Assembly: GCF_021028975.2 (NCBI RefSeq)
Contig: NC_059427.1
Span: 17,360,001 to 17,424,000 of the forward strand
DNA from: Sphaerodactylus townsendi
Lineage: Eukaryota
Length of the DNA: 64,000 nucleotides
Direction of reading: 5' to 3'
The translations under genes were made by a program, and so were the position numbers. A model generated the notes under the pieces. It saw nothing but the letters and a program-made list of their open reading frames with translations. It was not told the origin of the DNA and did no database searches. Each line of letters starts with the position of its first letter. Within the stretch, counting starts at the first letter, position 1. Shown here piece after piece: positions 1,400 through 63,557 of the stretch.

Positions 1400-1960
1400 A
1401 AGGGAGTAAGCACGCACGCGCACACAACATGGCCCTCTTCTCCCTCCCCAAGCGGCCAGCGAGGCAACGCAGGAAATCCTCCGCGGTGGAGAGAGATGCA
1501 AACCGCTACCGCGATGAATAGGAGGAGGAGGAGCAGCAGCCTGGGAGGGAGGCCTCCTGCTGCCCGGAACCCGCCTTCCCAACCAGGCCGTCGCTGCCGG
1601 GCGGTTGCCCTTCCCTTCGCGGCAACTCGGAGGCATCGGTGCGTCCGGCCCCTGTCTGCAAGCTGTCCTACACAGGGCCTTTCGGCGGGCCCAGCCAGAG
1701 CAGCGACCCTGTTGATAGCGGGCGAGAAGCGCAAAGGGCAGCCTGCAGTTTGCTTGGGCCATGGCAGAAAAGCATCTGGGGCATGCCTGGGCCTCGCTGC
1801 CGCTCTTTGGAGGAAGCATGTAGAGTTGGATTAAACGGGCGCCCCATCCATCACAGGTAACACCCGTGGCATCCCCTTTGGGCCTGGATCTCTATCCTTC
1901 CAGGCACCCTCTGGGTCTATGTTTCCATAGCCTCTTATCCCAGGAGTGGCAAGAGGCACG
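1400..1960 (+). promoter_or_regulatory. CpG-rich promoter/5' UTR region of CHST14
   Basis: High GC and CpG density immediately upstream of the CHST14 ORF. Confidence 0.6.
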
Positions 1961-1963
1961 GAG

Positions 1964-3037
1964 ATGGGGGTCAGTTCTGTGCGGCGGGCCACAGTCTCGG
2001 GCAGGACCCGCTCACACGGCACCAGTGGCACCGTGCTGCTGCCTTCCATGCTGATGTTTGGCGTGATCGTGGCCTCCAGCGGCCTTTTGCTCATGATCGA
2101 GAGGGGCATTTTGGCTGAGGTGAAGTCCCCGCCGCTCCATCCCTCGCACAGAGATCCGTCCTGGAGGAATGCTGGCAGTGCCAGAGGCGCCGCAGTGCCG
2201 GAGGATGTAGGGTACCAGGTGCTGCAAGATATCCGTAACAGGACAATCCGTGCCATGTGTGGGCAAAAGAACGTGCCCCACAGTATCTGGGACCTCTCCG
2301 CGAGCCAGAGGAGGACGGTACTTAAACACATCCTGGTTAGTGACAAACATCGCTTTTTGTATTGCTACGTGCCCAAAGTGGCTTGCTCCAACTGGAAACG
2401 AATCCTGAAAGTTTTAGACGGGGTGCTGGAGAATGTGGATGTGAAGCTCAAAATGGACCACAAGAGAGACTTGGTTTTTCTAAGAGACTTGAAACCAGAG
2501 GAGATCCGTTACCGGCTGAAACACTATTTCAAGTTCATCTTTGTCCGAGACCCGATGGAGAGACTTTTATCAGCTTACAGAAATAAATTTGGAGAGATCA
2601 AAGATTACCAGTTGAAATATGGAGTGGAAATAGTCAAAAGGTATAGGAAAAACCCAGGGAAAACGACGGGGGATGATGTCACTTTCTCCGAATTTCTCCG
2701 GTACCTCCTAGACGAAGATGTGGAGAAAATGAACGAACACTGGATGCCCATCTACAACTTGTGCCAGCCCTGTGCGGTGAGGTACGATTTCATCGGATCC
2801 TATGAAAGATTAAATGAAGATGCCAGTCATGTCCTGGAACGAGTTCAAGCGCCGTCCTATATACGCTTCCCCGAAAGGCAACCATGGTACAAACCAGTGA
2901 CTCCTCAAACTTTACATTACTTTTTATGTAACACTCCAAGGGGGCTGATCAAAGAGCTATTGCCAAAATACATTTTGGATTTCTCTTTGTTTGCTTACCC
3001 TCTTCCGAACATCACTAGTGAATTTTGCAGGCAGTGA
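1964..3037 (+). CDS. CHST14: Carbohydrate sulfotransferase 14 (dermatan 4-O-sulfotransferase 1), single exon
   Basis: [28 protein letters not shown] transmembrane segment, 5'PSB motif [13 protein letters not shown], 3'PB motif [16 protein letters not shown]-terminus [12 protein letters not shown]. First usable ATG is 1964 (gagATGG). The orthologous ATG at 1919 is followed by TAG. Candidate polyA signal AATAAA at 4981. Confidence 0.95.
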
Positions 3038-10796: not shown

Positions 10797-13221
10797 ATGG
10801 ATCCTTTTCAGATCCCCGACAGGTCCGGTAAGATGCTTTTTCTATTCTTCTTATGGCAAAAGAGGGGTGGGTGGGTGTTGGAATATATATAATTTCCCAT
10901 ATTAGTTGCAGAGATTGAAGTGCTATCTGATGGGATCACCCAAAGCAGTCTTCAAAGTGGGACTCGGGGGTTAAACCAGCCAGGAGCTTTCCATGAGGGA
11001 GTATCTAGAAACTCCTATCCGTTAGAACCAGGTGGGTGTCAAAATGCTGGTAAGATTTTTTTAAACTATTTTGAAAGCCCATTTGTCTTCTATGCTGATT
11101 CTAAGCTGGAGTTAAAATATTCTACATACTGATTATAAGCAAGAGTTACAATACTCTATGCTTCAGCTGTCTTAGAAAAAAAAGTATACACTCCTGCTGT
11201 AATTTGGAAAAATGTAGCAAAAGTGGAATCTAGCAGTGTCTAACTCCACTCCACAGAGGGGGGGGGGGGAGAGAGAGAGAGAGTGCTGAATACACATGTT
11301 GTTCTACAGAGGGGGCAATGCATACCGGTAGGTGGTAATAAGTGTCTCTATTTTAAATTACTAGAAATTATCATCCAGAAGGTCAGACAGTCAGCATTTC
11401 CCCAAGATGCAGAGCCATCAACACATGCAGCTAACATGCTCAGTAAGTCCCCCCCCCCTTATAATTCTGAAATGTAACGAGTGCAGCAGCCCTGTAAAAA
11501 AATCAGCACATTATATAGCTAAATGGAGAAAGCGTTTCTTGGTGGTTTAGAATGTTTTTTAATGGATGTGTCTTGGGGAAGCCTCCGTGTGCCTTATTAA
11601 GGCTCCACCCTCCTTTTGCTGCAAAAACTAGCAAGCCCCCTGCTGGGGGAATCTCAGAGCTCGAACCTTTCTGTGGAGGGCAGGCTATGCATTAAAGGGG
11701 TTGTGGATGTGTCTTGGGAAGTCTCAGAGCTGTATATTTTACAATTATTAGAAGTGGTCATTAAAAACCCAGCCTTTCCTGGTACACCAGATATGTACAG
11801 GTCAAGAGTATGTGAGCAGCTTGGCCTAATAGGGCCACCACTGCTCTTGCTGCCCAAACTGTCATTCCCAATCAGCAACCTAAGGAAGCTGCTGGTAATT
11901 ATTCTACTATGTGTTCAAAGGCACTTTGGGTGGGCGGGTGCGTTTTAGAGCTTCTCGGTGGTTGCCAGGCATTCCTGGAGATTCCTGGAGAAGTGAATAG
12001 AATGTTTTGGGGAGCGGGCGGGTGCGTTTTAGAGCTTCTCAGTGGTTGCCAGGCATTCCTGGAGATTCCTGGAGAAGTGAATAGAATGTTTTGGGGAGAG
12101 GGCAGGTGCATTTTAGAGCTTCTTGGTGGTTGCCAGGCATTCCTGGAGATTCCTGGAGAAGTGAATAGAATGTTTTTATGTAAAGTTATCAGTATATGAG
12201 CATAATTTCTCTCTGCAGCTGCAAGTTTAAGCGATATGCTTCATGTTTTGATATGTTTTCCTATTTTGTCTTCTTTTTTCACATTATTTAAATTCTTGTT
12301 ATATTAAGGTTTGCTAACTGGGGTGCATAATTCATTTCATGCTTGTGTTTTCACCAATGCTGGCAGTTTTCTTTATGGGGTATTTTAGGTCTACAACATG
12401 TTAAAAATGTTGCGTGGATGTGTATATATAATTTTCTAACAAGGCCTGTGTTTATCCTGTTTTCAGATGCTGTATCTGATAGTAAAAGCAAGTTGAAGCG
12501 GACAAGGACCGATCAACAAGCAGCTGCTGGTGCTGGGGATGTAAAAGCCAAGAAGGCTCGTGTGGAGGACCCCACAAGGGAGATTCCTGATGCTGTGTTT
12601 CTTGAGACCTGTGCCAAGCTGCAACCCATTCTAGTAGCAAAACAAGAGAACGAAAAGATTATTGAAAAAGCAAAGGCTGCGATCAAAAGGCTGGAAGCCA
12701 GATCCCTCGAAGTGATGAGAAGCCATCTAGCGAATTACCTCGAAGTGATGAAAAGCCATCTAGCGAATAATAAAGCTGATAATGTTTATTTAGATTGCAC
12801 AGCTAATGTAACACAGGTGGGTGCAGGTTTGCCACAGAATGCCCCACATGCTGATCCTGCACAGAGTCCCAAAAGTCAGTCATCGGGGTCTGATGGAGAT
12901 GGGGATGGGGGGCCTGAATGCGGAGCAACTGAAGAAGAGGAGGAGGAGGAGGAGGAGGAGGAGGAGGAGGGTGGGGATGTTAATGCATCTCCCTTACAGG
13001 ATGAGGAACAACCAGAAGTCTTTGTGGAAAGGGTGAGAACGTGGGAAAGGCCCTATGAAAATTTTAGAAGCCTATTGGTTAGTGAGGCATTCCGCTTGTT
13101 AATTTAGACAGGTTAACATCGTTGAGCCACGCTCTTGAAGCGCTTTCAAGAGGTGTTCAAACCGTTGTGAATGATATTAGCGGGAGAATTGAACCTGATG
13201 ATTTTGTACAGTTACGATTGG
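10797..13221 (+). pseudogene. 5' part of Maverick protein-primed DNA polymerase B gene (predicted exons 10797-10827, 10912-11049, 11365-11442, 12467-13221)
   Basis: Restoring one missing T near 13097 gives VFVERVRTWERPYENFRSLLVSEAFRFVNLDRLTSLSHALEALSRGVQTVVNDISGRIEPDDFVQLRL, resembling the N-terminal region of vertebrate Maverick pPolB (DFVQLRL). Upstream GT-AG exons all join in phase 1. Confidence 0.6.
11925..12176. repeat. Tandem repeat, 84-bp unit x3
   Basis: gtgcgttttagagcttctc...ggagaagtgaatagaatgtttt starts at 11938, 12022 and 12106. Confidence 0.95.
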
Positions 13222-16030: not shown

Positions 16031-16495
16031 TTTATTTATTAACATTCTACATCTTACGTTTCTATCTCCAAAGAGGATTCGAGGGGGCTTACATATGCTC
16101 CCCGCTGAACCCCCCAACAATACAAAAGCAGTATTAAAGATAAAAACATTAAAACCAATTACCAGCACGATGGCATAAAACCTGCATAAAAACATACAAG
16201 AGCAAACCTGCGTGTCGTACCCAGTCGAGGCCATGGGACAATATTAAAAAAAGGGGTACCCAGCTGGCCTGGCATAAAAAGCCCGGCAGAACAACTCTGT
16301 TTTACAGGCCATGTGGAACTGAGACAGACTCCACAGGGCCTGGATGTCCTCAGGGAGTACGTTCCACCAGGCCGGAGCCAGGGCCGTAAAAGCCCTGGTC
16401 CGTGTCGATGCCAGCCAGACATCCTTGGGGCCGGGGACCACCAACAGATTCACCTCTGCAGAGCAGAGGGGTCTTTGAGAGCAATAAGGGAAGAG
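16031..16495 (-). mobile_element. LINE (L2-like) 3' fragment
   Basis: Minus-strand translation ...TRTRAFTALAPAWWNVLPEDIQAL...CKTELF typical of an L2/CR1-clade ORF2 C-terminus; (TAAA) tail at about 16031-16040. Confidence 0.7.
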
Positions 16496-16509
16496 TTGAA
16501 GGGGCAGCT

Positions 16510-18251
16510 TCAGGGGCTCATTTTTCTCTTGACCTCCAGTGATGGCCACAGTCCGGCTATGACATTAGCCTGCACACCTTTTCTAACCACCTTGGCTCCA
16601 ATAGCCCTGATATCATTGTAATGCTGCAACATCTGGGCCTTGGTATTCCTGGATGTGAACTCCAAATCTGAGATTCGATGCTCAGCATCATCAGTGCAGC
16701 CAAAAAGGTTCCCCAGGGTATTCTGGATGCTAGCCATCATGGGGTGCATCCAGAACAACTCCGACTTAATTTGCTCCATGTCTGTAAGCAGCTGCTTCAC
16801 CATCTCCATTAACTCAGCAGCCGTTTTGTCTGGAAGTAAAGGAGATGGAGCTCTTTGCCCAGGTTTTGCTTCCCTGGAATCTGTGGAGGAAGCCGCCTCT
16901 GAGGTTTCTATGTGTGTCTCTGTTTCCATTTGGAGAGTTTCATGGGACTGGGTATTTATATTTATAGAACCATGTTTCCAGAGTGCCCCCAGTCCTGTCT
17001 GCAGCTTAGGTAACCTGCCCCTCAATTTTCTGGAGGCCCACCAGTTCTTCAAATTCAGATGTTTTTGTAGCTTCCCTCCTGGGTGCAGTCTCTGATGTTT
17101 CCTCAGGACAGATCCAGCAGACATGTTTCTCCTACTACATTTTCTTTTTCTGTCGGATTTTCTGTGTTTTATCAAAACAGACACACTGTCAGAATTTTCC
17201 CCAGAATCAGAGCAGTTGGTCTGTGTGGTAGAAGCTGAACTTGGAATGAACAGTTTCTTAAGACTGGAGCCTTCAGGCAAATTTTCTCCCTGACCATTTT
17301 TTTGAATATTGTGGTATTCTGAAGATTTCTCAGGTTCGGGGCCTGTAAGCTGGGGATCTGGTGTTGGCTGAGCATCAAATAAAAGAATGCCTGTAGTTAG
17401 TTCCAGCAAACCATTGCCAGACAGAACAGATTCCTCTTCTCCTCCTTCCTTCCCTGGGATACTGATCTGCTCGCTGTCCAGAATTATGGTCTTCTGACTA
17501 TTTAGTGCTGCAGTCCCATTCACACCTATTTGGGAGTAAGTGCTATTCAGGTCATTGAGTGAATAAATATTTATAGGCTTCAGCTGCGAGTTTTTCTCAG
17601 CACCCTGGGAAATATCTTCCACTGATATAAACAATGTTTCCTCAGGTAGGGCCACACATTCAAAGTCATCCTCTGTGTAGATATTCTGTTCATGAGGAAG
17701 TGTTATGGATTCACCCTGGTCCTCACCATCAACAGCTATGCATGGAGTCTCTCGACCTGGCCTACTATCCCGATGGTCCCTCAAATCTTCCCTGAAAGGA
17801 ATAAAATTCTCTTCCATTCTAGGGTTGTTTGACTGCTGCCTCTCCAATTCCTTCTGGTCCTCCTTCATTAAATTTTCCGCAGGATCCTGAGGGATTTTTC
17901 TCTCTGAGGATTCCTGTAGCTCCCCAGATAATATTGCGGGTTCAGGATCTTCCTCTCTGTGGCTTTTCCTGCTACCAACAAGTGAGGAGGGTTCGTCTTC
18001 TTTTCCACAACCACTATACACACACCTGGTCTCCAGATCTAATTCCGCATCTCTGGTTGTTTCCTTCAAATCGCTAACATCTTTTTCCTCTGAACTGCTT
18101 TCTGGTTGCCTTTCCAGAGGGTTCTCCTTAAATGAGTTTTCCTTGAAGCCCCAGGATATTTCCTTGTTGGATATTTCCAGCAATTCTGCCATAGGTTCAG
18201 GAGTTTCCTGCTGGGAGTCTTCCTCTCCTTTGCTGCCCATCTCCACACCTG
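16510..18251 (-). CDS. Last exon of FLYWCH-SCAN-KRAB gene: acidic low-complexity region, degenerate C2H2 relics, C-terminal coiled coil
   Basis: 1.74-kb open exon; NAGNAG acceptor ttcagcag in phase 1 matches the KRAB exon; relic fingers CSDSGENSDSVSVLIKHRKS and SVLRKHQRLHPGGK. Confidence 0.8.
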
Positions 18252-18390
18252 CTGAACCAAAGGGGAGGGGGGTCATTCTCTAAGTCAACAAAGTTAACTT
18301 TGCACACATGTAATAAAGCCTTTCCTTTACTAATAAGACCATTTAGCACTATTTAGTAACTGTATACATATCTTCATTAGATGCCTTAGA

Positions 18391-18520
18391 CCCGTGGTGG
18401 CGAACCTTTTGGCACTCCAGATGTTATGGACTACAATTCCCATCAGCCCCTGCCAGCATGGCCAATTGGCTATGCTGGCAGGGGTTGATATGAAATTGGT
18501 AATCCATCAACATCTGGAAT
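18391..18520. mobile_element. Palindromic hAT-type MITE (degraded)
   Basis: gtggtggcgaaccttttggcactccagatgttatggactacaattcccatcagcccc family. Confidence 0.75.
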
Positions 18521-18723
18521 ATAAAGACCACTCCCTCATATAACTTAGACAATGAACAATATGTTTATAAAAACAAAACCACCCACTAGACTTAGCATGT
18601 GCTTCATTGTATTGGGATTTACCTCTTATTTTTGTTATTCTATTCTATGTAGGTAACTGTACTATGTCTATTTGTTGTACACCGCCCGGAGCCCCTTGGG
18701 ATAGGGCGGTATAAAAATCCAAA

Positions 18724-18780
18724 GAATGAATGAATGAATGAATGAATGAATGAATGAATGAATGAATGAATGAATGAATG
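18724..18780. repeat. (GAAT)n microsatellite
   Basis: Direct reading. Confidence 0.95.
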
Positions 18781-20514
18781 ACTAACTCACTCTTGAAGTT
18801 TATCCTTACAATATGCCTGTGAGGTAGGCTAGCCAAGAGGATGACCAGCCAAAGGTCAACCAATGACCTCCATGTCAAGTGTGTGTGTGTGGATTTTCTT
18901 TCATGGAATTCCAAGTGGTTTACCTCTTTAACCTCTATTTAAATGACACTGTTTTTCCTGGTGAATCTTTCAACTCTCTGCACCTATCCAGCAGATCTAT
19001 CTCAGATTCGTTCGATGCAAACAATGCTGTGCTGTTATCTTGGAGTGGGTTAAGGCGACTGCTGAATGCTTTTGCACATTATTGTTCAAACAAGTCCTTG
19101 GATATCTATTACCAAAAGACCAAAGTTGTTTTTTTTTTGCAAAGGTGCCCCATCACATCATTTACCTTGGCTCATAATGGCTAGCTGATTGAGTAGGTGA
19201 ACACCTTTTCGCTGTCTTGGCTTCATTTCTTATAATCTGTCCTGAACAAGGTCTGCTACTAAAAAGTCAGCATCAATGCACTGTTCAGCCCTCCTGAAAT
19301 TCTTTCAGACCTCAGGCAGTGACTGCCTGTTGCTTTTGGTGTCTTTAAGGCTAAGATAATTCCTATTCTATTATATGGAGTATCAGTGACCATTGCTGAG
19401 GTCAATGGAAGGTATGACTCACGCTTAAAACCCTTCCTACATTCGCTGTCAAACATCCCTAAGTGTGTACCTGGCCCAGCTATTTTTCTAGAATTTGCTG
19501 AACCATCACTGGAGGCTAAGGCCTGGATAGCAATACGTTCTTTTATATTAAACAGCTGCCATTCATCAGACTGTTGCCTATCCATACTACCTGGCCAAAG
19601 ATGGCTTTTAAAGTCAATATTGAAAACTCTACCTGCATGTTGTAAGTTTCTACCGGCTCCCAAATATAGAATACTATTTCTAAGACATGGCGATATGGGT
19701 GGGGTTGAGGGTGCTTGGAGGCAGCAGGAAATCTTGCTGCCTCGCCGTTTTGGTGCGCCTCGACCCCGTCACTGACATGGGTGGGGCCAGGGGTTCTCGA
19801 AGACAATGAGGCAGCAGGACTTGAGAGACAACTTGGAGACAATGAGGCACCATGTCAGTGATACATGGACGGGATCAAGGCATGCGAAAACGATGAGGCA
19901 GCAGGACTTCCTGGTCACGTGGGGGGCGATTTTGCACCCCCCACGTGACCAGAAGAGTGGCATCCGGGGACAAGGGGTACCCTTGACTTTTAATGTCATT
20001 ATTTTCTAGATTTTAATTGTATAATCCCGCATATTAATAATTGTACATAAGCTTTATAAAACTGTAAATGTAAATCCTTTATTGAACTGTGTAGAGATGA
20101 GATTTTACGTTGTTTATAAATGAACCTTTCTCCTTTTGCTCGTGACTTGCTGATCTATTAGCATAAAAGAAATAGAGGTTTAATTCTATATTATTTACCA
20201 GATTATGTTATTTAGCTTCATGCCCTGAAAAACTTCCCCTGCCCGTTTCTACACAACAAGACCCTTTAAAGGAACAGGACATCATTCCCCCCCCCCCCCC
20301 CCGCCCTGCTGTCAGCCCTCTTATAGCACCCATCCATTCATCAATGATCTGGAGTGGGCAGCTTGCCAGCTGAAAGGGCTTGATAGGTCCTGAAAGATTG
20401 GGACACCATCTCTTGACCTATCTGCAAAGAATCCTGATAAAATGAGTGCACACTATTTTTTCAATGCCTTAGAGCCCAGAGCAGGATTTTCTAGGAACCA
20501 AGAAGGACCCGTAC

Positions 20515-20641
20515 TCAGCCAAGCCACGTTATCATAATTCTGTTGCATCACACTCCAGTACAGAGTTTTTTCCTCCAGGTTCAGCAAAGCCCATTCCTCC
20601 TCCAAGAAACGTATAGACACATCTTCAAAGGTGATTGAGTC
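20515..20641 (-). CDS. KRAB-A exon of FLYWCH-SCAN-KRAB gene
   Basis: [42 protein letters not shown]; canonical 127-nt exon, phase 0 in and phase 1 out, AG/GT flanks. Confidence 0.93.
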
Positions 20642-21472
20642 CTGAAACAACCAGAAGGAAGTTGCATTAACACATTTGGAGGTGTAATTTCCAAGCAAAT
20701 CTCAGGTCAGCGATGGATCAGTTGTACAGTTTTGGGCAAATCCACTGTCCTTCAGCCTCAGTTTCCAATCTGATAAATGGGTATAATTAAGGCACCATGC
20801 ACACACCCCCTGTAGAGAGAGATTAAAATAGTGGCTGCCCTTCTTAGCCTGACCCAAAGAAGGTGAATATAAAAGTACACATTTTAAAGCAAAAATCTGT
20901 AATCAACCCCACACAATTATCAGTAATTCTATTGCCATCTAGACATTAGTGCTAGACAATAAGACTAGACCTTCTACACTACTGTTACCAGTGACAGAGA
21001 ACAGATGGAACGCATGTCTGGTGGGGCCCACTAATTCAGCTTTAAGAACAGATTGGACAGAGATTTCTGGTCAGGGCCCAGATTGCGGAGACCTGAAAAA
21101 CACCTCTATGCTGCCTTGAGTTTCACACTGACAAAAAAAAGTGGGATATAAAGGGTAAATAAGTATGGAAGTGAGGTCAAATAAATAGCATTCTAGTGAA
21201 TGATGCAAGTGGGCTATGAATAAAAGTGTGAAGTTTGTGCAGGAAGGAGCCTTGGGCAGGACACCACACTCGGTGCAAAGCTTCCTGCTCAGGCTGGTCT
21301 CCAGAAGTGCCTCTAAGAAATGCATGACAAACAAGTGAAGCTCTTCCCACCCTCAAAAGCTCCATCTGTGGCCTCTTCCATGAGTTGTTTACAAGGACTC
21401 TTGCCACCATATGCTCTTTTCCTTTGAACTTTGCATGTTTTTTTTTTCCTCCGTTTGGTTCTGGAAACATTT

Positions 21473-22540
21473 AAGAACATAAGAACCAGCCTGCTGGATC
21501 AGACCAGAGCCCAGCACTCTGCTACTCACAGTGGCCCACCAGGTGCCTTTGGGAGCTCACATGCAGGATGTGAAAGCAATGGCCTTCTGCTGCTGCTGCT
21601 CCTGAGCACCTGGTCTGCTAAGGCATTTGCAATCTGAGATCAAGGAGGATCAAGATTGGTAGCCATAGATCGACTTCTCCTCCATAAATCTGTCCAAGCC
21701 CTTTTTAAAGCTATCCAGGTTAGTGGCCATCACCACCTCCTGTGGCAGCATATTCCAAACACCAATCACACGTTGTGTGGCGAAGAGTGCTTTCCTTTAT
21801 TGAATCCTAATTCTTCCCCCCAGCATTTTTATGAATGCCCCCTGGTTCTAGTATTGTGAGGAAGAGAGAAAAATTTATTCCTGTCACCATCTTCTACCCC
21901 ATGTATAATTTTATATACTTCAATCATTATCCCCCCCTCAGGCGTCTCCTCACCAAACTAAAGAGCCCCAAATGCCTTTGCAGCCTCTCCTCATAAGGAA
22001 GGTGCTCCAATCCTTCAATCATCCCTCGTTGCCCCTTCTCTGCACTTTTTTTAATCTCTTGACGATATCCTTTTTTGAGATGTGGCAACCAGAACTGAAC
22101 TTACTGATTACTCCAAAGATGCGGAATTAAGCACCGTATGTTTTTTATATAAGGGCATGACAATCCCTTGCAGTTTTGTTTATCCAAGCTCCTTTCCTAA
22201 TTATCCCCAGCATAGAAGTTTGCCTTTTTTTCACAGCTGCCATGCATTGAGTTGACATTTCCCAGGGAACTATCAACTAAGGCAGCCCAAATCCCTTTTC
22301 CCTGGCCTGTGACTGATAGCTACTGACCCTGTAAGTATTGTATGTGAAGTTTGGATTTTTTGCCCCTATGTGCATCACTTTACATTTTGCTACATTGAAC
22401 TGCATTTGCCATTTCTTAGCCCACTCACCTAATTTATCAAGGTCCGCTTGGAGCTCTTCGCAATCCTTTGTGGTTCTCACCACACTACATAATTTGGTAT
22501 CATCTGCAAACTTGGCCACCACACTACCCACCCCTACTTC
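21473..22540 (-). mobile_element. CR1 LINE 3' fragment (RT C-terminus and 3' UTR)
   Basis: VAKFADDTKL...LQADLDKLGEWAKKWQMQFNVAKCKVMHIG; aagaacataagaac terminal repeat. Confidence 0.9.
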
Positions 22541-23345
22541 TATTTTCCCTTCATGTTTCCTCCTTTGTTTTCCCAAGCACTTTTACCATGATTTTTCCCC
22601 TTCCTATTTCTGAGCCAGCTTCCCTTGAGCTTCCAGTCATGTTGAAACAGTCTTTATATCTTCACCCCATTAAATACCTGGCCTTTAGCCATGCCCCCAG
22701 CCTCCCCTTCAGCCATTTTCTGCTCCCCTTCATCCTCCATTTTAAAAAGGAATTTTTAACATTTTTTCTCTTTACCATATGGAACTAGCTAGGAAACCTT
22801 GAGGCAAAGATAAGAATGGGGTGATTAGATCCACTCTGTCAGTTTCACAGAGAGCTTGTGATATTAATGTTCAGGTACAGATACAAGGAAGCAGGGGACA
22901 TTAGATCAGCTTTGTCAATTTCACATGGGACCAGCCAGGTAACTTTAAGGGTAAGATACAATGTCTGCAATCAGGAGAGATGAAATTAACAAGAGATGTT
23001 GACTTTGCAGCGGAAATTGACAAGGGACTGCTGTGGTAATCATTGTGCTTTACAACAACTCTAATTTGGCTGAAAAATGTGTGTTGGGGTGGGTAGGATT
23101 AAGTACATGTTCCTGCTCCTTCAGGTAATGGGGCCTTCTCCAGTAGGGGTTGTTCGTGTTGGTGGGCTGGGGGGGGGGGGGTTGGCTTCCACTTTGTGTG
23201 GATAGTTCTCAGTGGTAGAAATGAAGGCTGAGACTTTTTTAAAAAAAATGCCACTTCAATACAACTGGACAATAATGCTAGAATGCCTGCGCAAAATAAA
23301 AAATGGAGGAGGGTTGTTCTTCTATGCCCTGCCCCCCCTTTCCTT

Positions 23346-23508
23346 AGTGCAGGCTGGAGAAGCGGCCTGTTCCCTTCAGGCTGAAAACGGCCTGGTGGGA
23401 ACTACACTTCCCATGAGACCCTGGGGTTCGCAAGGTCTCCTGGGAACTGTAGTTCCCACCAGGCCGTTTTTAGCCTGAAGGGAACATGCCGCTTCTCCAG
23501 CCTGCACT
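23346..23508. repeat. About 160-bp inverted repeat (MITE-like)
   Basis: agtgcaggctggagaagcggc...gggaactacacttccca / tgggaactgtagttccc...gccgcttctccagcctgcact; related partial copy near 60165-60265. Confidence 0.85.
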
Positions 23509-23925
23509 GTTTCACGATGGTAAGTGGGGGGCGGGGCCATTTTCCGCCCCAGGCACGTGCCCGGTGCAATGAGCACCCCCGGCCCACTAGTAGCTCTGAC
23601 TCTGCAGGAGTCCCATCGGGGGGAGGGGGGGAGAAGCTGGTTCACTTTAGCTGGGGATGGGCTGTCATAACTTCTGGTACCTGGACTCCCTTTGAATTAA
23701 ACCTGCTGACCACCTGAGCCTTTGAGAAGTGCTTTCCAGAGACCTTCCCCCACCCGCAATGACTTGAGGCTGTTGTTTCCAGATAACTAAGCCCCGACAC
23801 ATGATTCTTTGCCATTCCTGCTCCCAGTTCAGAAGCGAACAGGCCAATGCCGACCACAAGCACCACAAAACCTCTGAAAGACTCATTCAACACACAGAGC
23901 CATTAAATGCTGTCAAAACACATAC

Positions 23926-24822
23926 CTTCTGCAGTTCCTGACTAGCTCCAGAGGGTTCCTGTTCGCTCACGTAGGTCTCAGCCAGCTGAACTGCCTCCGT
24001 GCTGCTGCTCGGCTCCTGGGCTTTCACCCAGGCCTGCAAGGCCACCGGAAGCACTGCCAGGAACTGTTCCAAGATGACCATGTCCACAATCTGGTCCTTG
24101 TCGTGCTCCTGAGGACACAACCATTGCCGGGCTGCCTCACTTATGCAGGACAAAATCTCCTGGGGATTTGCTCCAGGTGGGACGGCGCCCGAGCGAAACC
24201 TCTGCCTCCCAGCTTCCTGGGTGGCCTGGGGGAGGGTTGAATGGGATGCTTGGGGCTCCTCACAGAGCATGGGAGTGGCCATGACATCACCATCCTCTAA
24301 TTTCTCTGAGCGCTCAAGAGAGTTTGGAGGAATTATAGAGAGTGATGAGGATGGATCCGTAGCAACTGACTTGGCCTCAGTGGCAGACGATGCTTGCGAA
24401 GGACACGTACCTTGGCGGGATGCTGCATAGATGTACTATACAAACTCAAATGCTGCATAAGCAGTTGGCTTCAAAGTTAGCTTTTTCACATTTTGGAAAC
24501 CTGGTTTCCTGCTGGGAACTGTTTCCGATAGCCCCCCAGAATTTGGCAAGACCGCTTCGTGGGTCAGTTGCGGGCCAGAAGGGATTGTTGTCATCTCTCT
24601 GCTGCCCTCTGTTCTCTTGGCTTCTCTGGGAAGGTGATTATGGTCTGAGAACTTGATGACACGGTCATCATAGGTGTGGGCTCTCCCTGGGCAGCGGTTT
24701 CTGTGGTAGTTTGCACATTTCCACACGGTTTTGTTCTTAAACACACGCTCCTTTGTAAACAGGTATCCTTTATGCAGCAGCTGATCTCGCCCTTTCTTAC
24801 TCTTCAAATACTGCAGGGGCAT
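23926..24822 (-). CDS. First coding exon of FLYWCH-SCAN-KRAB gene: FLYWCH zinc finger plus SCAN domain, with one in-frame TAG at 24436-24438
   Basis: YLKSKKGRDQLLHKGYLFTKE...TVWKCANYHRNRCPGRAHT...DHNH (FLYWCH), then RQRFRS...PQEILSCISEAARQWLCPQEHDKDQIVDMVILEQFLAVLP...WV...EAVQLAE (SCAN) in the same frame; acceptor at 24857, donor AAG/GTATGT. Confidence 0.85.
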
Positions 24823-25279
24823 TTTTTCAAAAGAACCGGGGATCAGGTTTGGGGATCTATTAAAAAAGACTGACAGCAAAGTTGTAATGAAAGAAAAATG
24901 AAGAACCCAGAGAAGGAGACGCTCACCGAGGTGGTGCTGCCAAGTAATACTTTCTCTGAGAGATCTTCAGGGTGCTGGGAAGAGATCCTTCAACATTACA
25001 GGGCAGGAAAGAGGACCTCCTTTCCCGAGATCGTCTTTTTGGTGATTATACTCACATCTTAATGATCCGCAAACGTTTTGTTCTCAAGTACTTGTTAGGG
25101 GATCCGCCCAAACTGAGTAGGTAATATCTGCCTTTGGGAAGCCTTCACGGCTCCTCCAAGTCCAAGCTGACAACGGGTGGATTCCTTTCCTTGTTAAATC
25201 CCAGATTCCACTTGCCAGGCGTCACTTCGCAGGAGGCTCCGGATTTCCAGATGTTATAAGCGCTTCCTCAGTCTGTTGA

Positions 25280-25690
25280 CAGGAAATGGGTGACTATCAG
25301 AGCCTGCGAAGCGGTTCTCACTCCGGTCAGCTCCCAGCGCAAATGGCTGCGAGGAAGCCAATCCGATTCTTGGAGGCAGTCTCTGTTGAGCCACGCCCCC
25401 TGATTGCACCAATCCCAGCAACGAAGAGCGAGTCCCCGCCAGATTGCCATTTCTCCCAGCAAAGCGCATGAGACAGACAGAGGAAAAAGGCCGACCACTT
25501 TCCCCCTAGTGGGCGAATCAAGACCTTTAACGTCGTTCCGGTGGAAAACGAAACTAACCGGATCACGTGACCAAGGGAGACTTCTTGTAAGAAAACTTTT
25601 TTTGGTCTGTTTGCCGGTGGGCGGGAGAGATGGCTCAGGCAGGGCGAGTATTGACGCGTGCACATGCACACGCATCCCACAACCCCTCGC
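25280..25690 (-). promoter_or_regulatory. CpG-rich promoter of the FLYWCH-SCAN-KRAB gene
   Basis: CCAAT boxes, TCACGTGA E-box (25563-25570), GC boxes and YY1-like AAATGGC upstream of a probable UTR exon ending at 24927 (GTGAG donor). Confidence 0.6.
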
Positions 25691-32254: not shown

Positions 32255-35200
32255 TCAATCCATCGCAACCATCGCAGCAAGAACAGACACCTCCGCTCTC
32301 TTTTCAGTGTCCCTGGCCTGGCTCTGAGGGAGGTGTTCCAGCTGCTCCATCACTATTGGGAGACACAGGGCTGGGGGCTCCTGCAACAGCTGGGGAGGTC
32401 CAGCAGCAGCGTCCGGATGGCTCTTGCTCTTGTGAGCAGTGACATTGTCTTTCTTCTCAAACTTCTTGCCACAGAGGTCACAGGAAAACTGGTAGAAGGA
32501 GTGCGCGTCGTGCTTCTTCATGTGCCAGTTCAAGGAGGCTTTTTGGCGGCAGGTGAACCCACAGATCTCACACCTGAGCAAAGAGGAGGGACCAAGAACA
32601 GAATCACACACAAGGACTGATGAGCTAAAAGAGACCAATGGTCCATTTGGATCAGTACTGTCTCTCAGTCAATGGCCAATTAGCAGGCACCCAGAAGATC
32701 ACAAGCAAGATAGGGGAGATCTCCCCCATCTTCTCCTATCTGTCCTTTGCATCTCAGAGAATAACCCTCTCTTTGAACATGAGGGGTGTGATTTGAGTTA
32801 CCTCTGCCAGCAGCGGACCTACCTCCTCCATAAATGACCTAACATTTTTTTAAACAGTCATTTATATTAATGGTGACTGCAACAATTCGAGATGATTCAT
32901 CCCGTACGTGTGTCATTCACACCTCACTTTTCAGGCAACTGTCCCTCAAAGTAGTTCACATCATGAACAAAGGTAGATTCTACCCACAGCAAGAATACAA
33001 AGGCAAACAGCCCCCGGGAATATTCACAAGATAAGCAAACCCCCATCCCAAGAAACCAAAACCAAATGACAAGTACTGACCAGGAACCTGAAACTAAATA
33101 AAGCAAGTACTAGTTTGACAGCTGAGCACAGTGAACTCCATGAACGGGAGGCACCACAGAATAGGCCAATGGTGGTGAACCTTTGGCACTCCAGATGTTA
33201 TGGACTACAATTCCCATCAGCCCCTGCCAGCACGGCCAATTGGCCGTGCTGGCAGGGGCTGATGGGAATTGTAGTCCATAACATCTGGAGTGCCAAAGAT
33301 TCACCACCACGGGAATAGGCTCTGCCTTTAATCAAAAAGTGACAGAAACACACCAAGGAGGGCCACAGCAGAACATCTTAAGTTGTGGAACAGAGTCATG
33401 CTGAAGTAAGTCTTCTAGGCAGGTGGTACACAGTTGGTAGGTAATGTCGTCAAGGTGGCAGAAATTTCCAGGGGTTGGGGACAAGGTTTCAGTGCTCTGC
33501 AGACACCCTTCTATGCCTGGCACAACCAGAATGAAGTTGCAAAACAGCAAAAATTGAAGGGCAGGGTATGGCCAGTAAGGCAATCGTTCAAATGTGGTCA
33601 ACTTTGGTATACAGAGGGCACAGAAACCAGCTTCTCTTGGCATAGAATCTGGCTCATAAGCTTAAGATATGTTAGCACAGAGTACAGGCCTACTTACCGT
33701 ATGTAATTGCAAGTAGGGTTGTAAAACGTTAAATGTTTAAAACAATTTAAAAATAAAGATTCATTTGCCATTTATATGTTGCTGTGAATCGTTAAATTTT
33801 CTCCAAGGTTTGGAAAACCAGCAAAGGTTACCTGTGCATTCCAGGACTGTCTGTGCGCCAACAGATCCCCCCCACCCCCCACAACACTGGCCTTACAATT
33901 ATGTTTCAAGATTGATGTTGGAGCCTGTCAATTTTCTTAACAAAAACAATAGCAGAGTGGATAAGGTGTAAGAATATGTAGGTGGGCTAGAGATATTGTC
34001 TTGGTTCATATTTTGAGTGGTTATATATTTGCATTAATTGTTGCCCTTTTCAACGAAATGTACTTCTGAAATTGCAAGACGATGGATAGGCACCGTCCCA
34101 GAAAAAGCGGTGGGATTACTCACTGTAAAGGCTTTTCCCCTGTGTGGATCCGCCTGTGGATGATCAAGTTGCTACTAGTGCGAAAGGAGCGGGCACAGAA
34201 CTCACAGATGTAGTCTCGTTTGTCTGCAGGGAAGGAGAAAAGCATCTCGAGGGCTATTGTGCAGCAGAGGTGGGAAACCATTTTCCCTAAACATTATACT
34301 TATTTGTCAACAATCTATACATGCAAAACAATCATAGAATCATAGAGTTGGAAGAGACCACAAGGGCCATCAAGTCCAACCCCCTGCAATGCAGGAACAC
34401 ACAATCAAAGCACTCCCGACATATGCTCATCCAGCCTTTGTTTAAAAACCTCCAAAGAAGGAGACTCCACCACTCTTCGAGGCAGTGAATTCCACTGTTG
34501 AACAGCCCTGACGGTCAGGAAGTTCTTCCTAATGTTTAGGTGGAATCTCTTTTCCTTCACCTTAAATCCATTACTCCGTGTCCTAGTCTCTGAGGCAGCA
34601 GAAAACAAGCTTACTCCCTCTTTTTGTACCTACCCCAATTTATGTACCTATTTATAATTTTCAGTATTTATACATGTCTATACAATGCCATGTACAGCTA
34701 TTCATTAAATCCAACAGAGAATATTTTTCTCTTTTCACATAAGACTAAAAGACAACTATGGTGGGCAATAGTGTTGGGGCCTGCGGGGCGGCGGAGGGTT
34801 GCCACGCAGGAGGCAACACTTTTTTGCTCTATGGACCCCACTTCTAAATTCCTACATCTGTGCACCTAGCAATATAGGCTCACATGTATTGTGCTACAGG
34901 GGCAGATCACATGACCTGCAGAAGGTTCTAAGTTCCACTCCTGGCATCACCACCCAAAGTATCTCAGTCAGCAGGTGCCAAGGCAAAACTACCCCTGCCA
35001 GAGATCCTGGACAGTTGCTGTTTGTTGGACTAATGACCTTTCTAAGTGTGAGGCAGTTTTATATATGCAGGCTCATCATCCAAAGGGATTTCTCCAGTGC
35101 ACACTTGAGCAAGCTTGTCCATCTCACAACTAACCACTCAGTCAACTTTTGGCATCTTTCTGTAAATGTGGGTTCAGTTGAAACAGGGACACGAGCCAAA

Positions 35201-38200
35201 GCAGTGTTCTGTTGATGCTGAGAGCTGCTCTAAACCCCTTAGTTATCATTCATCGCATGATGATTTACCTCTCCTACTTCCTTATTTGAAGGCTGCTGAT
35301 GCTGAAGTCGGATGGAAGAAAAGGAGAGCAGGGCTTCTTGTATTGCCTTCCCAGGGAAGGCAAAACAGAGGTTTTGAAGAGGAATGTGTGTGTTGAAAGA
35401 CAATGCACATTCAAAAGCAATGAGGTGTAGTGGTTAACAGTGGCAGGCTCTGATCTGGAGAACTGGGTTTGATGTCCCACTCCTCTACAGGAAGCCTCTG
35501 GATGACCTTGGGCTAACCATAGTTCTCTCAGAACTCTCTCAGCCTCACCTACCTCACCAGGTGTCTGTAGTGGGGAGAGGAAGGGATTGTGGTTGGGAGG
35601 TTCTGGGAGACTCCGTATGGTTGAGAAACAAATGGTTAAAAAAAATCCAACTTTTTCCTCTTCAAATAGTCTTCAAAGATCCCAATGCCAAAAGAAAATG
35701 CAACGCTATCAATATGAACACACACACACGAAGCTACCTTCCACTGAATCAGTACACTGGTCTATCAAGGTGAGTACTGCCTACTCTCCTCCAGGGTCTC
35801 AGGCAGAGGCCATTTGTAACCCCTGATCTTTTAACTGCAGATGCTGAGAACTGGGCCTGGGAGATACTCTGCCACTGAGCCACAGCCCGACCCTGCCACT
35901 ATCTGTAGCAGATGTACCTTTGGTATCTATTGCCATCTGCCAGGGCATAGGTCAGTGGTGGCAAACCTATGGCACGGGTGCCAGAGGTGGCACTCAGAGC
36001 CCTTTCTGTGGGCACGCATGCACAGGGTTTGTCATGTGGGGTGGCAGAAAATCACACACACCCTCACACACATCTAGGCTGCCCTGGGCATGATCCTTTA
36101 CCTGGGAGTAAGCTCGGTTGCCTCCTAGGGTCATGACTCACCCATTCAAAGTATTACATGGTTGCTTCACCAAGCTTACTCCTGAGTAACGCGTGCCTTG
36201 GAGCCAACCGTTTTTCTAAACCAAAACCTTAGTATCCGGGTTAAACTGCCGTGTTGGCACTTTGCGACAAATCAGTGGGTTTTGGGTTGCAATTTGGGCA
36301 CTCGGTCTTGAAAAGGTTCACCATCACTGGCATAGGTTGCTTAGCAAATGGCCAGCCAGTTCAGACAAGGAAAACAAATCTGCACCATAAATGTTGCAGA
36401 GGAATCAAAAGGTACAAAGTGAGCAGAGGACTAAAAATAACTCTCTCCAAATTACTGTTATGCAAAGTATGAAAGCAAATGGGAACCACTAGATGAAACT
36501 CAGAGGCACGAAGAGAGGGTTCCAGCTGAAGGCAGGTTAAAGGCTCTTTTTGGGCTGGAGTAGGAGGATGACAACACTCTTCAGAGGGAGGCTGTGGCAG
36601 GCTCACCACTGTGCAGCTTCTCGTGCTCTTTGAGGTGTTTCTTGAAGTTGAAAGACTTGCCGCAGCTGGGATCAGAGCAAGTGAATGTTTTTTGGTGGAC
36701 ATGCTGGTATTTCTTGTGGTGCTAAAAAAACAAAACCAAAAATAAAAATAAAAACCCAAGTCAAAATACAAGAATTACTATTTTTGTGGTAAAGTTAACA
36801 GGGGGGGAAAGGGCTGGGGATAGTGTTCCAATCTGCTGAGGAAACAAACTTCATGAGGGAATGATATATTACACTGGGAGGATAATTTTATCCCTTTGTA
36901 ACGCACATATGGGCTTCATTTTTAATTTGTGACAAGCACCTAGAGATTTTACATGTGAGATACTAATAATCACATCATTAAAAAGAGAGAAACTGTTATA
37001 TCACATATAGCATTTCCTGTGACATAAAGCACATTTCAGGGCACCAGAACTTGTTTTACTGCAGCAGTGGCATAGGAGGTTAAGAGCTCGTGTATCTAAT
37101 CTGGAGGAACCAGGTTTGATTCCCAGCTCTGCTGCCTGAGCTGTGGAGGCTTATCTGAGGAATTCAGATTAGCCTATACACTCCCACACATGCCAGCTGG
37201 GTGACCTTGGGCTAGTCACAGCTTCTCGGAGCTCTCTCAGCCCCACCTACCTCACAGGGTATTTGTTGTGAGGGGGGAAGGGCAAGGAGATTGTAAGCCC
37301 CTTTGAGTCTCCTGCAGGAGAGAAAGGGGGGATATAAATCCAAACTCTTCTTCTTCTTCTTAAAAAAACAACACTGTGGATCCACCCAGATACCCATAAG
37401 GATGAGATGAGGAAGAAGAAAGCCCCACATGGTTGCTTTCACTCCACTGGGACTCCAAAGCAGCCTACAACATCATTCTCCCCTCTTCTATTTTACTCTC
37501 ACAACAATCACTTTGCAAGGTAGATTAGGCGGAGAGAGAATGCCTGTGCCCAGGGTCCCCCATTGAACTTCTATAGCAGAGCGGAGGTCTGAACCCGGGC
37601 TTCCCGGACACCCTCTCCAGTACACCATGCTGGCTCTGAGCATGTTGTCTCTGAACTTGGAGGTGCCATCAAAACTTGTATTTGCTAATACAACTCTATT
37701 CCATGCTTCTCTCTTCTCAGGTCCTATGGGGTGGCAGTCACTGAAGTGGGGGCCACCCACATCAAAATGTTTTGCAGAAACCCGAGAAGTTGTGGGACAT
37801 CCACTTTCTCGATCAGAAGACTAGTAGGCAATGCCACCAAGCAGGGCTTGTGGCTCAGCTTTGCATGTGGAATGTCCCACATTTACATCCCTGGCATCTC
37901 ACTGAGCAGGTGACAGGAAACGTCTTTCTCTGACAGAGATGCTGGAGAGCGGATGCCAGTCAGAATGGACAGAGCAAGCGGGACCAAATGTCTGACTTGC
38001 TGTAGAGGAGCTTCCTTTGTTCACACACTAACCTGCCAGTCCAGCCAGCCCAGCCCCTTGTTCTTTTGTCTTCCCTCTGCCATGAAGCCCACCCTCTGAA
38101 GAAGCCATTTTCTCCAGGCAAACTGATACCAGCAGTATGGAGATCAGATGTAATTCCAGGCTCTACTTGGAGGTTGGCAGCAATCACTGGGATGGCCATG

Positions 38201-41200
38201 GGGCAGCAGCAGGTCAGGGATTAGGAAAGGTCTGCTTGGTTGTCTGAGCCACAATGCACTGGTGTTTGCAGGAACAAGGCCTACTCTCAGAGCCCTCCCC
38301 TCCCAGCAAGGTTGCCAGCCACTTACATTCAAGTATTGGCGGTTGGAAAAAATCTTCCCACAGCCATCATAGTCACAGAGGAGGATCTCTCGCTTGGCTG
38401 CCTTCCTGTGGAGCAGGACAAGGTTGGGCATGAGAGAAGAGAGGAAGAGGAAACCCCTTAAAAACACCAGCCCCAAAGACCAGAACAGCCTCACCGAACA
38501 GTGTCCCTCTGCTCCCCCTTGCTCCATTAAGGCCTTGAGTGCCAGGCCTTATTGCACCCTCTCAGCAATCAGCTGTTGACTAGGCCTCCTATCTATAATC
38601 CTTCTGTCCAGGGGCGTAATGCCCATTGGGAAAGGTGGGCATCTGCCCAGGGTACCACCTTGTGGGGGGCATCAAAATGCAGGGTTCGTTTTTGGGTATT
38701 TTAGTGGTTTTCCATTTTTGGCCTGCAGGGGGCGCAGTTTTTAGGCTAGTGGCATCAAAATTTCAGCGTATCATCAGGAGACTGTCCTTATGCTACCCCC
38801 TAGCATAAGGACAGTCTCCTGATGATACGCAGAAATTTTGGTGCTGATACGTCTAAAAATGCACCCCCTGCAGGTACCAATGTCCTGGTGCAAAAAAAAA
38901 AATTGGTTGTGGTGGAGTGGCCGCCCATGGGCGGGGCGGGCATTTAACTCAGGTTTTGCCCAGGGCTACAGTTTGCCTCGTTACACCCCTGCTTCTGTGA
39001 CTGGGCAATCCAAAACTGAATCACACCTGTTAAAATTCACTGGAGTCAATGGGCTTCCAAGGGGGTAACTCTGTTTAGGATGGCACTGCAAGTAATCCAA
39101 GAATGTATTTTCTGGTGCTTTTGGTAAAGCAACACATAGTCGCTCACCTGATTCTTTTTGGACCAATCTGGGCCACATCTTCATCACCAGGCTGTGCCTG
39201 CTTCTTACAGCTGTAAGGAAGAGATGCTTAACAACTCAAACAAAAAACAAATCTGTCTTCAGAAGGGTCATTAGGTAGCCATTATGGCTAATATGGCGGA
39301 AGCAACCCAACTGAAAAATGGGGCAAGGGAGGCAGGATTTGAGAACAGCCACCTTGTGAAAGTCTCTCAGGTGGGCTAGATATAACAACCATGTCCTCTT
39401 GTCTGTACCCAGCAAACAGAATGTTAGTGCTAATCATGGAGGCTGCATTTGGCTTGTTCCAAGTTACTTAGAACCATGAATTTGTCTAATTCCTTTTAAA
39501 GCTAAGCTAGCGGCCAGCCTGTTACCAGATGCTTGGACAACTGTCCTGCAGGGCAAATAGCAATGGGGGTGGGGGGAGGCACGGGTTCTAATTGAGAAAG
39601 GATGAAACACACACACACGTACACATGTTCACCCACGCTGCTATTCCAATCAAAATCACACAAACATACACAAACTGCATAAACTGTCTCATACGTTGGG
39701 AGACACATGGCAGGTCTCCGTGGTGTTTAATTTCATGCCTGTTTATGAAATGTTCTTGCTCAGTGTTGTTTATATCTATTCATTTTAGTATTTCTGTCCT
39801 GCTTTTCTCTCCACTGTGGGTTCAAAACTGGCTTAAGAAACATACCAATGTGTTTAGGTATAACTGCAAGTATTCAGCTCGTGCTGGATCCATTGGCCCA
39901 GCTCACCCAAGACTTCTGTAACCAACACATTTTGGGTGTTTGGCTCCACCTTTCCAGTTCCCTGTCTGAGGTGAACATCCCTCTCCTTTCTCCCTTATGT
40001 TGGACTTGCCCCTCACCCTGCTTCGCCTTCACCGTTTCTCCCCTCTCAAGAGGGGCTGTGGCTAGTGTTAAGTGGAACGATTTCCCAGCTTTGGCAACGA
40101 CGCTGGTTTCTCTTTCACCGCTACGGTCGCTCCCTTGGAAGCACTCAGAAGCTGAAGTTGCCGAGGTCTTTGCAGCATGGAGTCCCTATGGATAGGCAAC
40201 ATTGACACAGAATTTCATTCCCACGTCTGACCAGTGTCTGATTTGCCAGAGGCATCAAAGAAACATTAACAAATAGAGCAACATTTGCAGATTAGTGTTA
40301 CTGGACATTACCCCATACTTAACTTCCCACTATCATTCAAAAATCCTACAAAATAAGGAAAGTAGCCTTGTGCTTGTCCTGTTCTTGACCATCACGAGCA
40401 GAACACAGAAAGCAAACAACCAGCCTTTTCACGAGAAATCCCATGTCTAGCACATAGGGCAGTACTGAATTGTGGTTAAATTTTACATTTTTTTTCTATT
40501 TTGCCTCTGGAGGGGAATCTTGAGATAGCTAATTCTTAAAATTAGGTATGTATTTATTCTGAACCCCAAACTTTTTAATCCTGCCTTTTTCCTTGCATTT
40601 ACATAAAACTTTTTTTCACTTGGAAATGTGCTACTTTTCTGTTAGTTTGGGCTCAGACATCCATCTGGAAAACCTCTTGGCTAACTTACTATCAAAATGG
40701 CATAGACAGGGCTGATCCCTACTGTCAAAAACCATCTCCGTGAGCTGGAAATCAAGATGTATACGTCTCGATTTGGCTCCGAAGGGTGGCGGCGGAAATA
40801 TGCATCTGGAATTCCAGTCTATTGTCATATGCGTTTTGACCCTGGATGCATAAAGAAAACAGGCTGTAACAGTGAGAGGAGAGTGACCTTCAGGTGGACA
40901 GCAAGAGTCACGCTGTAAAAAAGTTCCCTTTGTTCACAGTTCCTGCTTTGTATCCTCTTCAAGCATCAACACTAAATTAGAAGCTGTTTCCAGGATGCCC
41001 CCTAATACCTCAAATGTACCTGTCAAGGGAAGGATGATAATTTTCATCTCGCAGGTCGTCTGTATATGCCAAGCGGTCTTCCTCCTCCAAATCCTCTCCT
41101 CCTCCTCCTCCTTCCTCCTCCTCTGGTGGGTCAGGCTCTGACTGCGGTTTTCCCTCTGGCAGGGGCAAAGTGCTGCAGAAAGGGTGGGCGGGATGAAAGG

Positions 41201-63350: not shown

Positions 63351-63357
63351 CCAGTCC

Positions 63358-63430
63358 TGGAGAATGTGGGCATCGATCCCACTACCTCTCGCATGCTAAG
63401 CGAGCGCTCTACCATTTGAGCTAATTCCCC
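63358..63430 (-). tRNA. tRNA-Ala(AGC)
   Basis: GGGGAATTAGCTCAAATGGTAGAGCGCTCGCTTAGCATGCGAGAGGTAGTGGGATCGATGCCCACATTCTCCA; G3:U70 identity pair; T6 downstream. Confidence 0.95.
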
Positions 63431-63557
63431 ATGTACTGCTGGAAAAGGGTTTGAAACATCTGCAGAGGGAATGGGTCTGTGGGGTGGTTGCCACGACATG
63501 GAACTAAGCCAGGCTTCCGAGCAGCAAAAGGACACAGCACACTCAGCAGCCCAGTCC

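Follow-up and report, generated by a model that had tools for sequence, protein, structure and literature searches.

How does a protein built on the plan of a KRAB zinc-finger factor find its place on DNA when the C2H2 zinc fingers that it carries are dead? The question is raised by a minus-strand gene in a 64,000-nucleotide stretch of the genome of the gecko Sphaerodactylus townsendi (assembly GCF_021028975.2, contig NC_059427.1, positions 17,360,001 to 17,424,000), referred to below as the window, whose numbering we use throughout. A FLYWCH zinc finger and a SCAN domain share the first of its three exons, the second codes for a KRAB-A box, and the third runs from an acidic spacer over ghost C2H2 fingers to a coiled coil that is conserved. 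Our preferred reading, to which we give a probability of roughly 0.58, is that this is a conserved and transcribed squamate gene whose product would act as a DNA-binding multimer in regulation, guided to its sites by a Mutator-type finger that was captured and not by C2H2 fingers.

Gene structure and a probable assembly error

The gene starts with an ATG at 24822, followed by the FLYWCH finger (24810-24634, PF04500, E 2.3e-16; start codon and finger together occupy 24634-24822), which has its C-C-H-H ligands intact and also matches the FLYWCH1 domain of PDB 2rpr (E 6e-12). The SCAN domain (23956-24219, PF02023, E 1e-26) lies in the same exon and the same frame, and the exon ends at 23926 with a GT donor. 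The KRAB-A box (PF01352, E 1.1e-16) sits in a 127-base second exon (20515-20641), and the last exon has an open frame of 589 codons that ends at 16510. Both introns are GT-AG, no KRAB-B exon follows the KRAB-A exon in the splice joints of run contigs and reads, and the joined product (after the correction described below) is 918 residues long. The three domains are therefore where a first, sequence-only reading of the window had put them, and its count of three phase-compatible exons stands as well, that of about 920 residues only with the correction; what it overlooked is that the frame, as the window is printed, is broken between FLYWCH and SCAN by an in-frame TAG (24438-24436).

This stop is most likely an assembly error, because three sets of contigs from two species agree against the window and reopen the frame. 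Organism A, in the contigs of sequencing runs X1 and X4, and organism B, in those of X5, depart from the window in the same 18 ways within 56 bases (24424-24479), namely 7 substitutions, 3 insertions and 8 deletions (of 9 bases), with a net change of -6, and one of these alters the first base of the stop. Applying them yields a stop-free coding exon of 891 bases and the 918-residue joined frame, in which the residues inside the patch are approximate since the placement of the indels is ambiguous. The corrected patch contains an RLRA/RAHLRASRQ stretch that resembles the orthologue motif TIQRLRACLNATRQ; in orthologues this position is occupied by a conserved helix (KQTIQRLRA), the very part that matches a transposase (see below). 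The single-base indels look like those of uncorrected long reads, and the assembly itself may go back to the sample of X1. A mini-intron excising the TAG was considered and rejected, since no run has a joint there. The RefSeq model of the gene, XP_048347907.1, is identical to residues 179-918 and lacks FLYWCH, a truncation that would stem from the presumed error. That the gene is real and intact is, in our judgement, nearly certain.

Conservation and transcription

A protein database search found FLYWCH, SCAN and KRAB together in 19 of 65 longer homologues, from 17 genera that are all squamate (geckos, girdled lizards, lacertids, amphisbaenians, monitors, iguanians and snakes), and a further search added two Anolis proteins, which brings the total to 21 database proteins in 18 genera. 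No non-squamate protein with both FLYWCH and SCAN was found in word-based searches, which are weak evidence of absence. Five Logan open reading frames run uninterrupted from FLYWCH through SCAN and stop shortly beyond the donor position, which makes it likely that the two domains generally share an exon. In an alignment of 20 rows (the corrected gecko version plus 19 full models, leaving out P0030, P0041, P0044 and partial models), mean identity is 0.66 for FLYWCH, 0.69 for SCAN, 0.74 for KRAB-A and 0.63 for the coil (0.74 among lizards, 0.51 between lizards and snakes), and 0.30-0.42 for linkers, spacer and ghost fingers, the linker beside FLYWCH standing at 0.30. In a tree of the same rows, geckos, lacertoids, iguanians and snakes come out as groups supported at 96 or higher, the deep forks being weak; together with the domain identities, this fits one vertically inherited gene. 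All four zinc ligands of FLYWCH are intact in 20 of 20 orthologues, and its basic residues K24, R26, K31 and K35 are invariant in the eight rows aligned for them. The squamate orthologues that the sequence-only reading had proposed to look for thus exist and have retained FLYWCH. The gecko split lies some 190-200 million years back.

In databases the gene goes under a dozen automatic names (such as 'ZNF483-like', 'ZNF436-like' or 'uncharacterized'); its locus identifiers include LOC103277990 (Anolis), LOC110088025 (Pogona) and LOC107292842. Two models are peculiar: the Heteronotia protein (P0025) has about 50 coil residues duplicated within its spacer, and in a Naja protein (P0007) the SCAN domain of this gene (94% identical to P0041) is joined to a Myb/SANT-like domain (PF13837), possibly an annotation chimera.

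As for expression, a contig of run X4 (3418 bases; not a single molecule, and from a run whose type is not on record) spans 25335-23925, 20640-20513 and 18246-16362 with GT-AG joints, so that it joins all three exons and, being spliced, implies RNA. This would be the transcript linking FLYWCH to SCAN and KRAB on which the earlier proposal depended. The contig begins with an unspliced 5' untranslated part of exon 1 (24823-25335), which is single-copy in the genome searched (1.81 Gb, 1742 contigs) and has two upstream open reading frames of 1 and 9 codons, and it closes with the stop codon (16512-16510) and 3' untranslated part (16362-16512 in all); the stretch 25335-23925 is unbroken both in X4 and in the genomic contig of X1. 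Three runs of one study on a close relative (organism C) provide raw RNA reads, which are thin over the exons and absent from two intron bins. The SCAN-KRAB joint is crossed by three reads of X12 and one of X14, and the second joint (KRAB to exon 3) is seen only in X4. Two observations concern the surroundings of these exons: intron 1 holds, at about 21470-22580, a high-copy retroelement fragment with very deep read cover and a reverse-transcriptase-like frame (FADDTKL), which we take to be CR1-type, and run X5 has, beside a near-identical contig, an extra one about 90% identical over the SCAN part (window 23881-24357, 45 differences), which is possibly a partial duplicate.

Origin of the FLYWCH finger

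The closest non-squamate relative that we found for the N-terminus is a transposase of the FLYWCH-MULE (Mutator-like element) type. In a metagenome scan with the N-terminal alignment, two loci of one contig were the only relatives among 182 pattern matches, and they encode FLYWCH (E 1e-15) and then a MULE domain (E 1.5e-13), which is the layout of Phantom-group Mutator transposases (PMC6446971). The orthologue profile scores 78 bits against the FLYWCH-MULE transposase over positions 7-125, that is, through the KRTIQR of the helix (hhalign probability 99), versus 55 bits over positions 3-72 only for a host BTB-FLYWCH protein; the match to the FLYWCH1 domain covers positions 2-72 and stops at the end of the finger. 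When the post-finger helix is scored alone, its transposase score is reached by 2 of 500 shuffles. An Atlas search with the N-terminus returned FLYWCH clusters at 0.77 only. The transposon ancestry that the sequence-only reading had attributed to FLYWCH finds sequence evidence in the profile match, helix included, and we consider capture from a transposase likely.

No second FLYWCH was found among the gecko-genome candidates scored, the exon 1 region being a single match in the genome; the MULE catalytic domain (PF10551) occurs in none of 18 orthologues, and no relatives of the N-terminus or of the coil were found in viral contigs. Two other loci of the gecko genome have Mutator features. One (positions 1402-1818 of L012, on G000:C8) is a decayed MULE catalytic domain (E 1.2e-7), a fossil Phantom-like element that we rejected as the source of FLYWCH for want of a recognisable FLYWCH. 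The other (L013, G000:C8:103472803-103476090) is an open frame of about 1000 codons with CG-1, MULE, SWIM and Ulp1 protease matches, which suggests that a vertebrate carries a Mutator gene, either still intact or domesticated; the survey PMC6446971 could not confirm MULE transposases in vertebrates.

Dead fingers and a variant KRAB box

The last exon opens with an acidic spacer (17221-18248) that is indeed long, at 344 residues with 21.5% D+E and a mean identity of 0.38 in the 20-row alignment. It is followed by two ghost C2H2 fingers (17068-17220) that lack a full ligand set, each recognised at p=0.002 against 500 shuffles by a profile built on 150 squamate fingers, so that the relic fingers described earlier are real. 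None of 18 orthologues has a zf-C2H2 Pfam match at E<=5 and none of the 20 rows has an intact finger, a ghost being detected at p<0.01 in 14 of the 20, nearly always in the same stretch. Hemicordylus retains CPKC..L.QRSDLVIQ one unit upstream of the two ghosts, which means that at least three fingers were once present. An Erythrolamprus protein (P0044, XP_070594020.1, an accession close to that of the main orthologue) combines FLYWCH-SCAN-KRAB with 12 intact C2H2 fingers, and its N-terminal module duplicates that of P0042 (83.5% identical over 340 residues). Whether it arose by later shuffling or is a chimera of annotation, it makes the order of FLYWCH capture and finger decay unreadable from the data. 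The earlier idea that a C2H2 array was swapped for a captured, putatively DNA-binding domain is compatible with the end state.

KRAB-A is the most conserved block of the protein, with its exact length kept and its DV and EEW largely so. In this gecko MLE has become MQQ, and 17 of the 20 orthologues read MHQ (as in snakes), MQQ or TNQ there, the remaining three, all lacertids, reading MQE; in other words, position 34 is Q in 17 and E in the three lacertids only. Of the features of a canonical KRAB zinc-finger protein, DV and EEW are mostly there, and the intact C2H2 array and MLE (E34) are missing. In human proteins, mutation of MLE abolishes TRIM28 binding and E34 is needed for strong repression, while ZNF746, which has G34, gains a great deal when E34 is restored (PMC8835667); moreover, SCAN mediates oligomers, and several old KRAB zinc-finger proteins bearing SCAN or DUF3669 do not bind KAP1 (PMC6745500). 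Since the glutamate critical for TRIM28 is absent in 17 of 20 orthologues, classic repression by this KRAB is doubtful, and the residues present make weak TRIM28 binding somewhat the better guess. The notion of a repressor working through TRIM28, as first proposed, is weakened by the replaced MLE, the lack of a KRAB-B exon and the reported need for E34.

The C-terminal coil

The protein ends with a coiled coil (16546-16812), its last 90 residues being predicted to form two long helices (pLDDT 72.6). The coil of the sequence-only reading is therefore present, and it is not a plain one: among lizards it is as conserved as SCAN, and it may derive from a mobile element. It has the motif RhxxhE (RISDLE in this gecko, 16677-16660), which reads RISxLE in 14 of 14 lizards and is found in none of six snakes, where R has changed to G, and which is the trimer motif common to L1 ORF1p and DUF3669 (10.1101/2025.03.01.640934), making this a candidate LINE-1 ORF1p-derived trimer coil.

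The best other match to the coil in the genome is a single decayed ORF1-like stretch (L003, G000:C1:144998093-144998359, minus strand), 42% identical over 53 residues (E 4.5e-5), on which a reciprocal search agrees. It reads EAEHRISELED and then DLD..NIR..GV.EG, resembling the ELR..NILRIRG..EEG junction of the genome's L1 frames; we take DLD..NIR..GV.EG to be the coil-RRM junction of an L1-type ORF1p, and its codons may be what CpG decay has left of an arginine-rich stretch. L003 has no Transposase_22 match; it may be what is left of an old LINE, or a further coil that was captured. An Atlas link of the coil to Tnp_22_trimer (0.85, 14% of members) is a lead only, and sequence and fold searches of the PDB returned generic coils only. 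Several candidates were rejected: the abundant gecko L1 group as a donor (no signal), L007 and L009 as homologues from L1 (both are a different repeat, presumably a CR1-type end, read in antisense), L004 and L008 (weak or generic coil matches) and L020-L029 (which match a different repeat beside L003 and not its ORF1-like part). On balance, a LINE-1 origin of the coil is slightly favoured, and the coil likely oligomerises.

Proposed history and the alternatives

How might such a gene have arisen and what might it do? We propose that, in the squamate ancestor, a SCAN-KRAB-C2H2 gene received a Phantom-type Mutator transposon within its SCAN exon or immediately ahead of it, and that the transposon's start codon and first ~125 codons (FLYWCH and helix) came to read into SCAN without a splice. 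The C2H2 array would have decayed, and a coil, possibly from LINE-1 ORF1p, would have come to close the last exon. Some 190 kb from the gene there is a SCAN paralogue with 70% identity, and SCAN itself has been traced to a Gmr1-like capsid (PMC4592553). In the protein, SCAN and coil could cluster several single FLYWCH fingers and thereby provide enough avidity for repeated sites, SCAN could also draw in other SCAN zinc-finger proteins, and in most lineages the variant KRAB would recruit little or no TRIM28, the output passing through other partners or weakly through TRIM28. We think it fairly likely that FLYWCH is the DNA-binding part; human FLYWCH1, which has five fingers, has yielded a DNA motif (PMC13538051).

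A more familiar possibility is a canonical KRAB-transposase repressor, with FLYWCH binding old Mutator ends and KRAB-A recruiting TRIM28 to silence them. Four KRAB-transposase fusions do repress sequence-specifically (10.1101/2020.05.07.082677), and the strong conservation of KRAB-A (0.74, with DV, EEW and exact length kept) and the E34 of the three lacertids would suit such a role; however, Q34 in 17 of 20 orthologues, the missing KRAB-B exon and the fact that no matching transposon ends were found in the genome make it unlikely. Less likely still is a scaffold or decoy with FLYWCH as a protein- or RNA-binding module, a protein that modulates other SCAN zinc-finger proteins or forms condensates without choosing DNA sites itself. 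One FLYWCH, two oligomerisation parts and no intact C2H2 finger are what such a protein could look like, DUF3669 coils drive condensates (10.1101/2025.03.01.640934) and FLYWCH1 works with beta-catenin (PMC10027918), but the invariance of K24, R26, K31 and K35 is that expected of a nucleic-acid-binding face, and the transposase helix has been retained as well. Finally, the gene might be split or a pseudogene in this gecko, with the TAG a real allele and only SCAN-KRAB made from Met179. The stop is in the window, the RefSeq model is short, contigs lose rare variants (so that the stop could be heterozygous), and the N-terminal half of the coil is more diverged in this gecko than in other lizards (0.56 versus 0.74). 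Set against the 18 sites in 56 bases at which three contig sets of two species contradict the window, the restored frame and RLRA..L.A.RQ motif, and indels that look typical of uncorrected long reads, this has very little chance of being right.

Several points weigh against a multimeric regulator aimed by its captured finger. RNA reads are sparse, with no X12 cover of the FLYWCH-SCAN linker. The transposase comparison consists of one metagenome contig and one host protein, and for vertebrate FLYWCH1 a single PDB domain was compared, which scored 49 bits under another profile, so that a host donor is possible. Neither a FLYWCH-bearing transposon copy nor a dispersed terminal repeat was found in the gecko genome, and no target site can be named. 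As for the coil, it scored not better than reversed controls against 23 ORF1 frames of the abundant gecko L1 group (best 9.4 versus 5.6 bits; likewise for L003), hhalign gave that group a probability of 0.1, no Tnp_22 or DUF3669 Pfam match was among the listed families, and RhxxhE is lost in six of six snakes. Lastly, the lacertids (3 of 20) do have E34.

The boldest version of the preferred reading is that of a squamate-wide, undescribed transcription factor made from three mobile-element classes (FLYWCH and helix from Mutator, SCAN from a Gypsy capsid and a trimer coil from LINE-1 ORF1p) around KRAB and born by exon read-through; it would testify to Mutator elements having invaded the squamate ancestor and to a KRAB gene having captured an L1 trimer coil for a second time, independently. 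This version we put forward as tentative and, taken whole, more probably wrong than right. If the preferred reading is true, (i) lizards and snakes would have a regulator of their own, retained ever since geckos branched off, (ii) there would be a second route to transposase capture, by N-terminal read-through into a shared exon, and (iii) Mutator elements would once have been present in a vertebrate lineage, where the survey could not confirm them. The gene would also be a natural test of the DNA choice of a single FLYWCH finger when multimerised, for which the snake loss of the trimer motif and the lacertid E34 offer built-in comparisons.

Other features of the window

The gene sits amid zinc-finger genes: on the minus strand, 32255-38548 holds exons of a C2H2 gene (which we take to be ZNF692/ZFP91-like) and 58679-59749 a separate C2H2 array exon. 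On the plus strand are a single-exon sulfotransferase (1931-3037, PF03567, E 2.5e-63; presumably CHST14-like) and a 258-codon open frame (12331-13107) with an acidic run and no clear family. There are also two tRNA-Glu(CTC) and two tRNA-Ala(AGC) genes, at 52299-52371, 54164-54236, 63357-63431 and 63557-63631.

Comparison with known systems

Our literature searches (FLYWCH with SCAN and KRAB; FLYWCH in squamates) found no paper on the gene, which is real, conserved and apparently undescribed. A survey of L1-ORF1p fusions (PMC12129022) names four other genes, and six locus or protein identifiers of ours are absent from 10 supplementary files of that survey. In the main text of Cosby et al. (10.1101/2020.05.07.082677), a term search returned no FLYWCH, Mutator, MULE or squamate; their supplementary tables lay outside the search, and a bare listing there is possible because RefSeq models of the gene are public.

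The nearest parallel is the class of KRABINER-type host-transposase fusions, in which a transposase DNA-binding domain is in frame with KRAB (and SCAN) in a multi-exon, spliced and long-kept gene. Here too a transposase-derived and a host domain share a frame, in a gene of at least two exons with both introns supported by RNA. What differs is the manner of capture. In all cases described by Cosby et al., the transposase domains lie in exons distinct from those of host domains, and eight of nine splice sites are acceptors placed ahead of the transposase. The pattern is one that was observed and not a criterion for entry into the class, and our gene departs from it, since FLYWCH forms the N-terminus and sits with SCAN in one exon that is not spliced, an arrangement rightly called unusual in the first reading. 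With Phantom-group MULE transposases the gene shares a FLYWCH at the very N-terminus and a KxTIQR helix some 50 residues on, but it has no catalytic MULE domain, is single-copy, and terminal repeats were not found. FLYWCH1 and BTB-FLYWCH host proteins have the same finger family, but their matches end with the finger and exclude the helix. FLYWCH1 is not known to carry SCAN or KRAB. It has, moreover, five fingers (PMC13538051) versus one here.

With ZKSCAN-type SCAN-KRAB-C2H2 proteins the gene has in common a SCAN exon, a KRAB-A exon and a long last exon with spacer and finger remains, from which it differs by having no intact C2H2 finger and by the additional FLYWCH and coil. DUF3669 KRAB zinc-finger proteins (ZNF746, ZNF777, ZNF282 and ZNF398, which form L1-ORF1p-derived trimers) likewise combine KRAB with a heptad RhxxhE coil, and ZNF746 (G34, PMC8835667) resembles most of the orthologues in having a KRAB without E34. 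Unlike theirs, the coil here is C-terminal and not N-terminal, no DUF3669 match appears among the families listed for it, and it is accompanied by a dead C2H2 array. Since a single co-option event has been described for DUF3669 (10.1101/2025.03.01.640934), the coil of this squamate gene would, if L1-derived, be the second.

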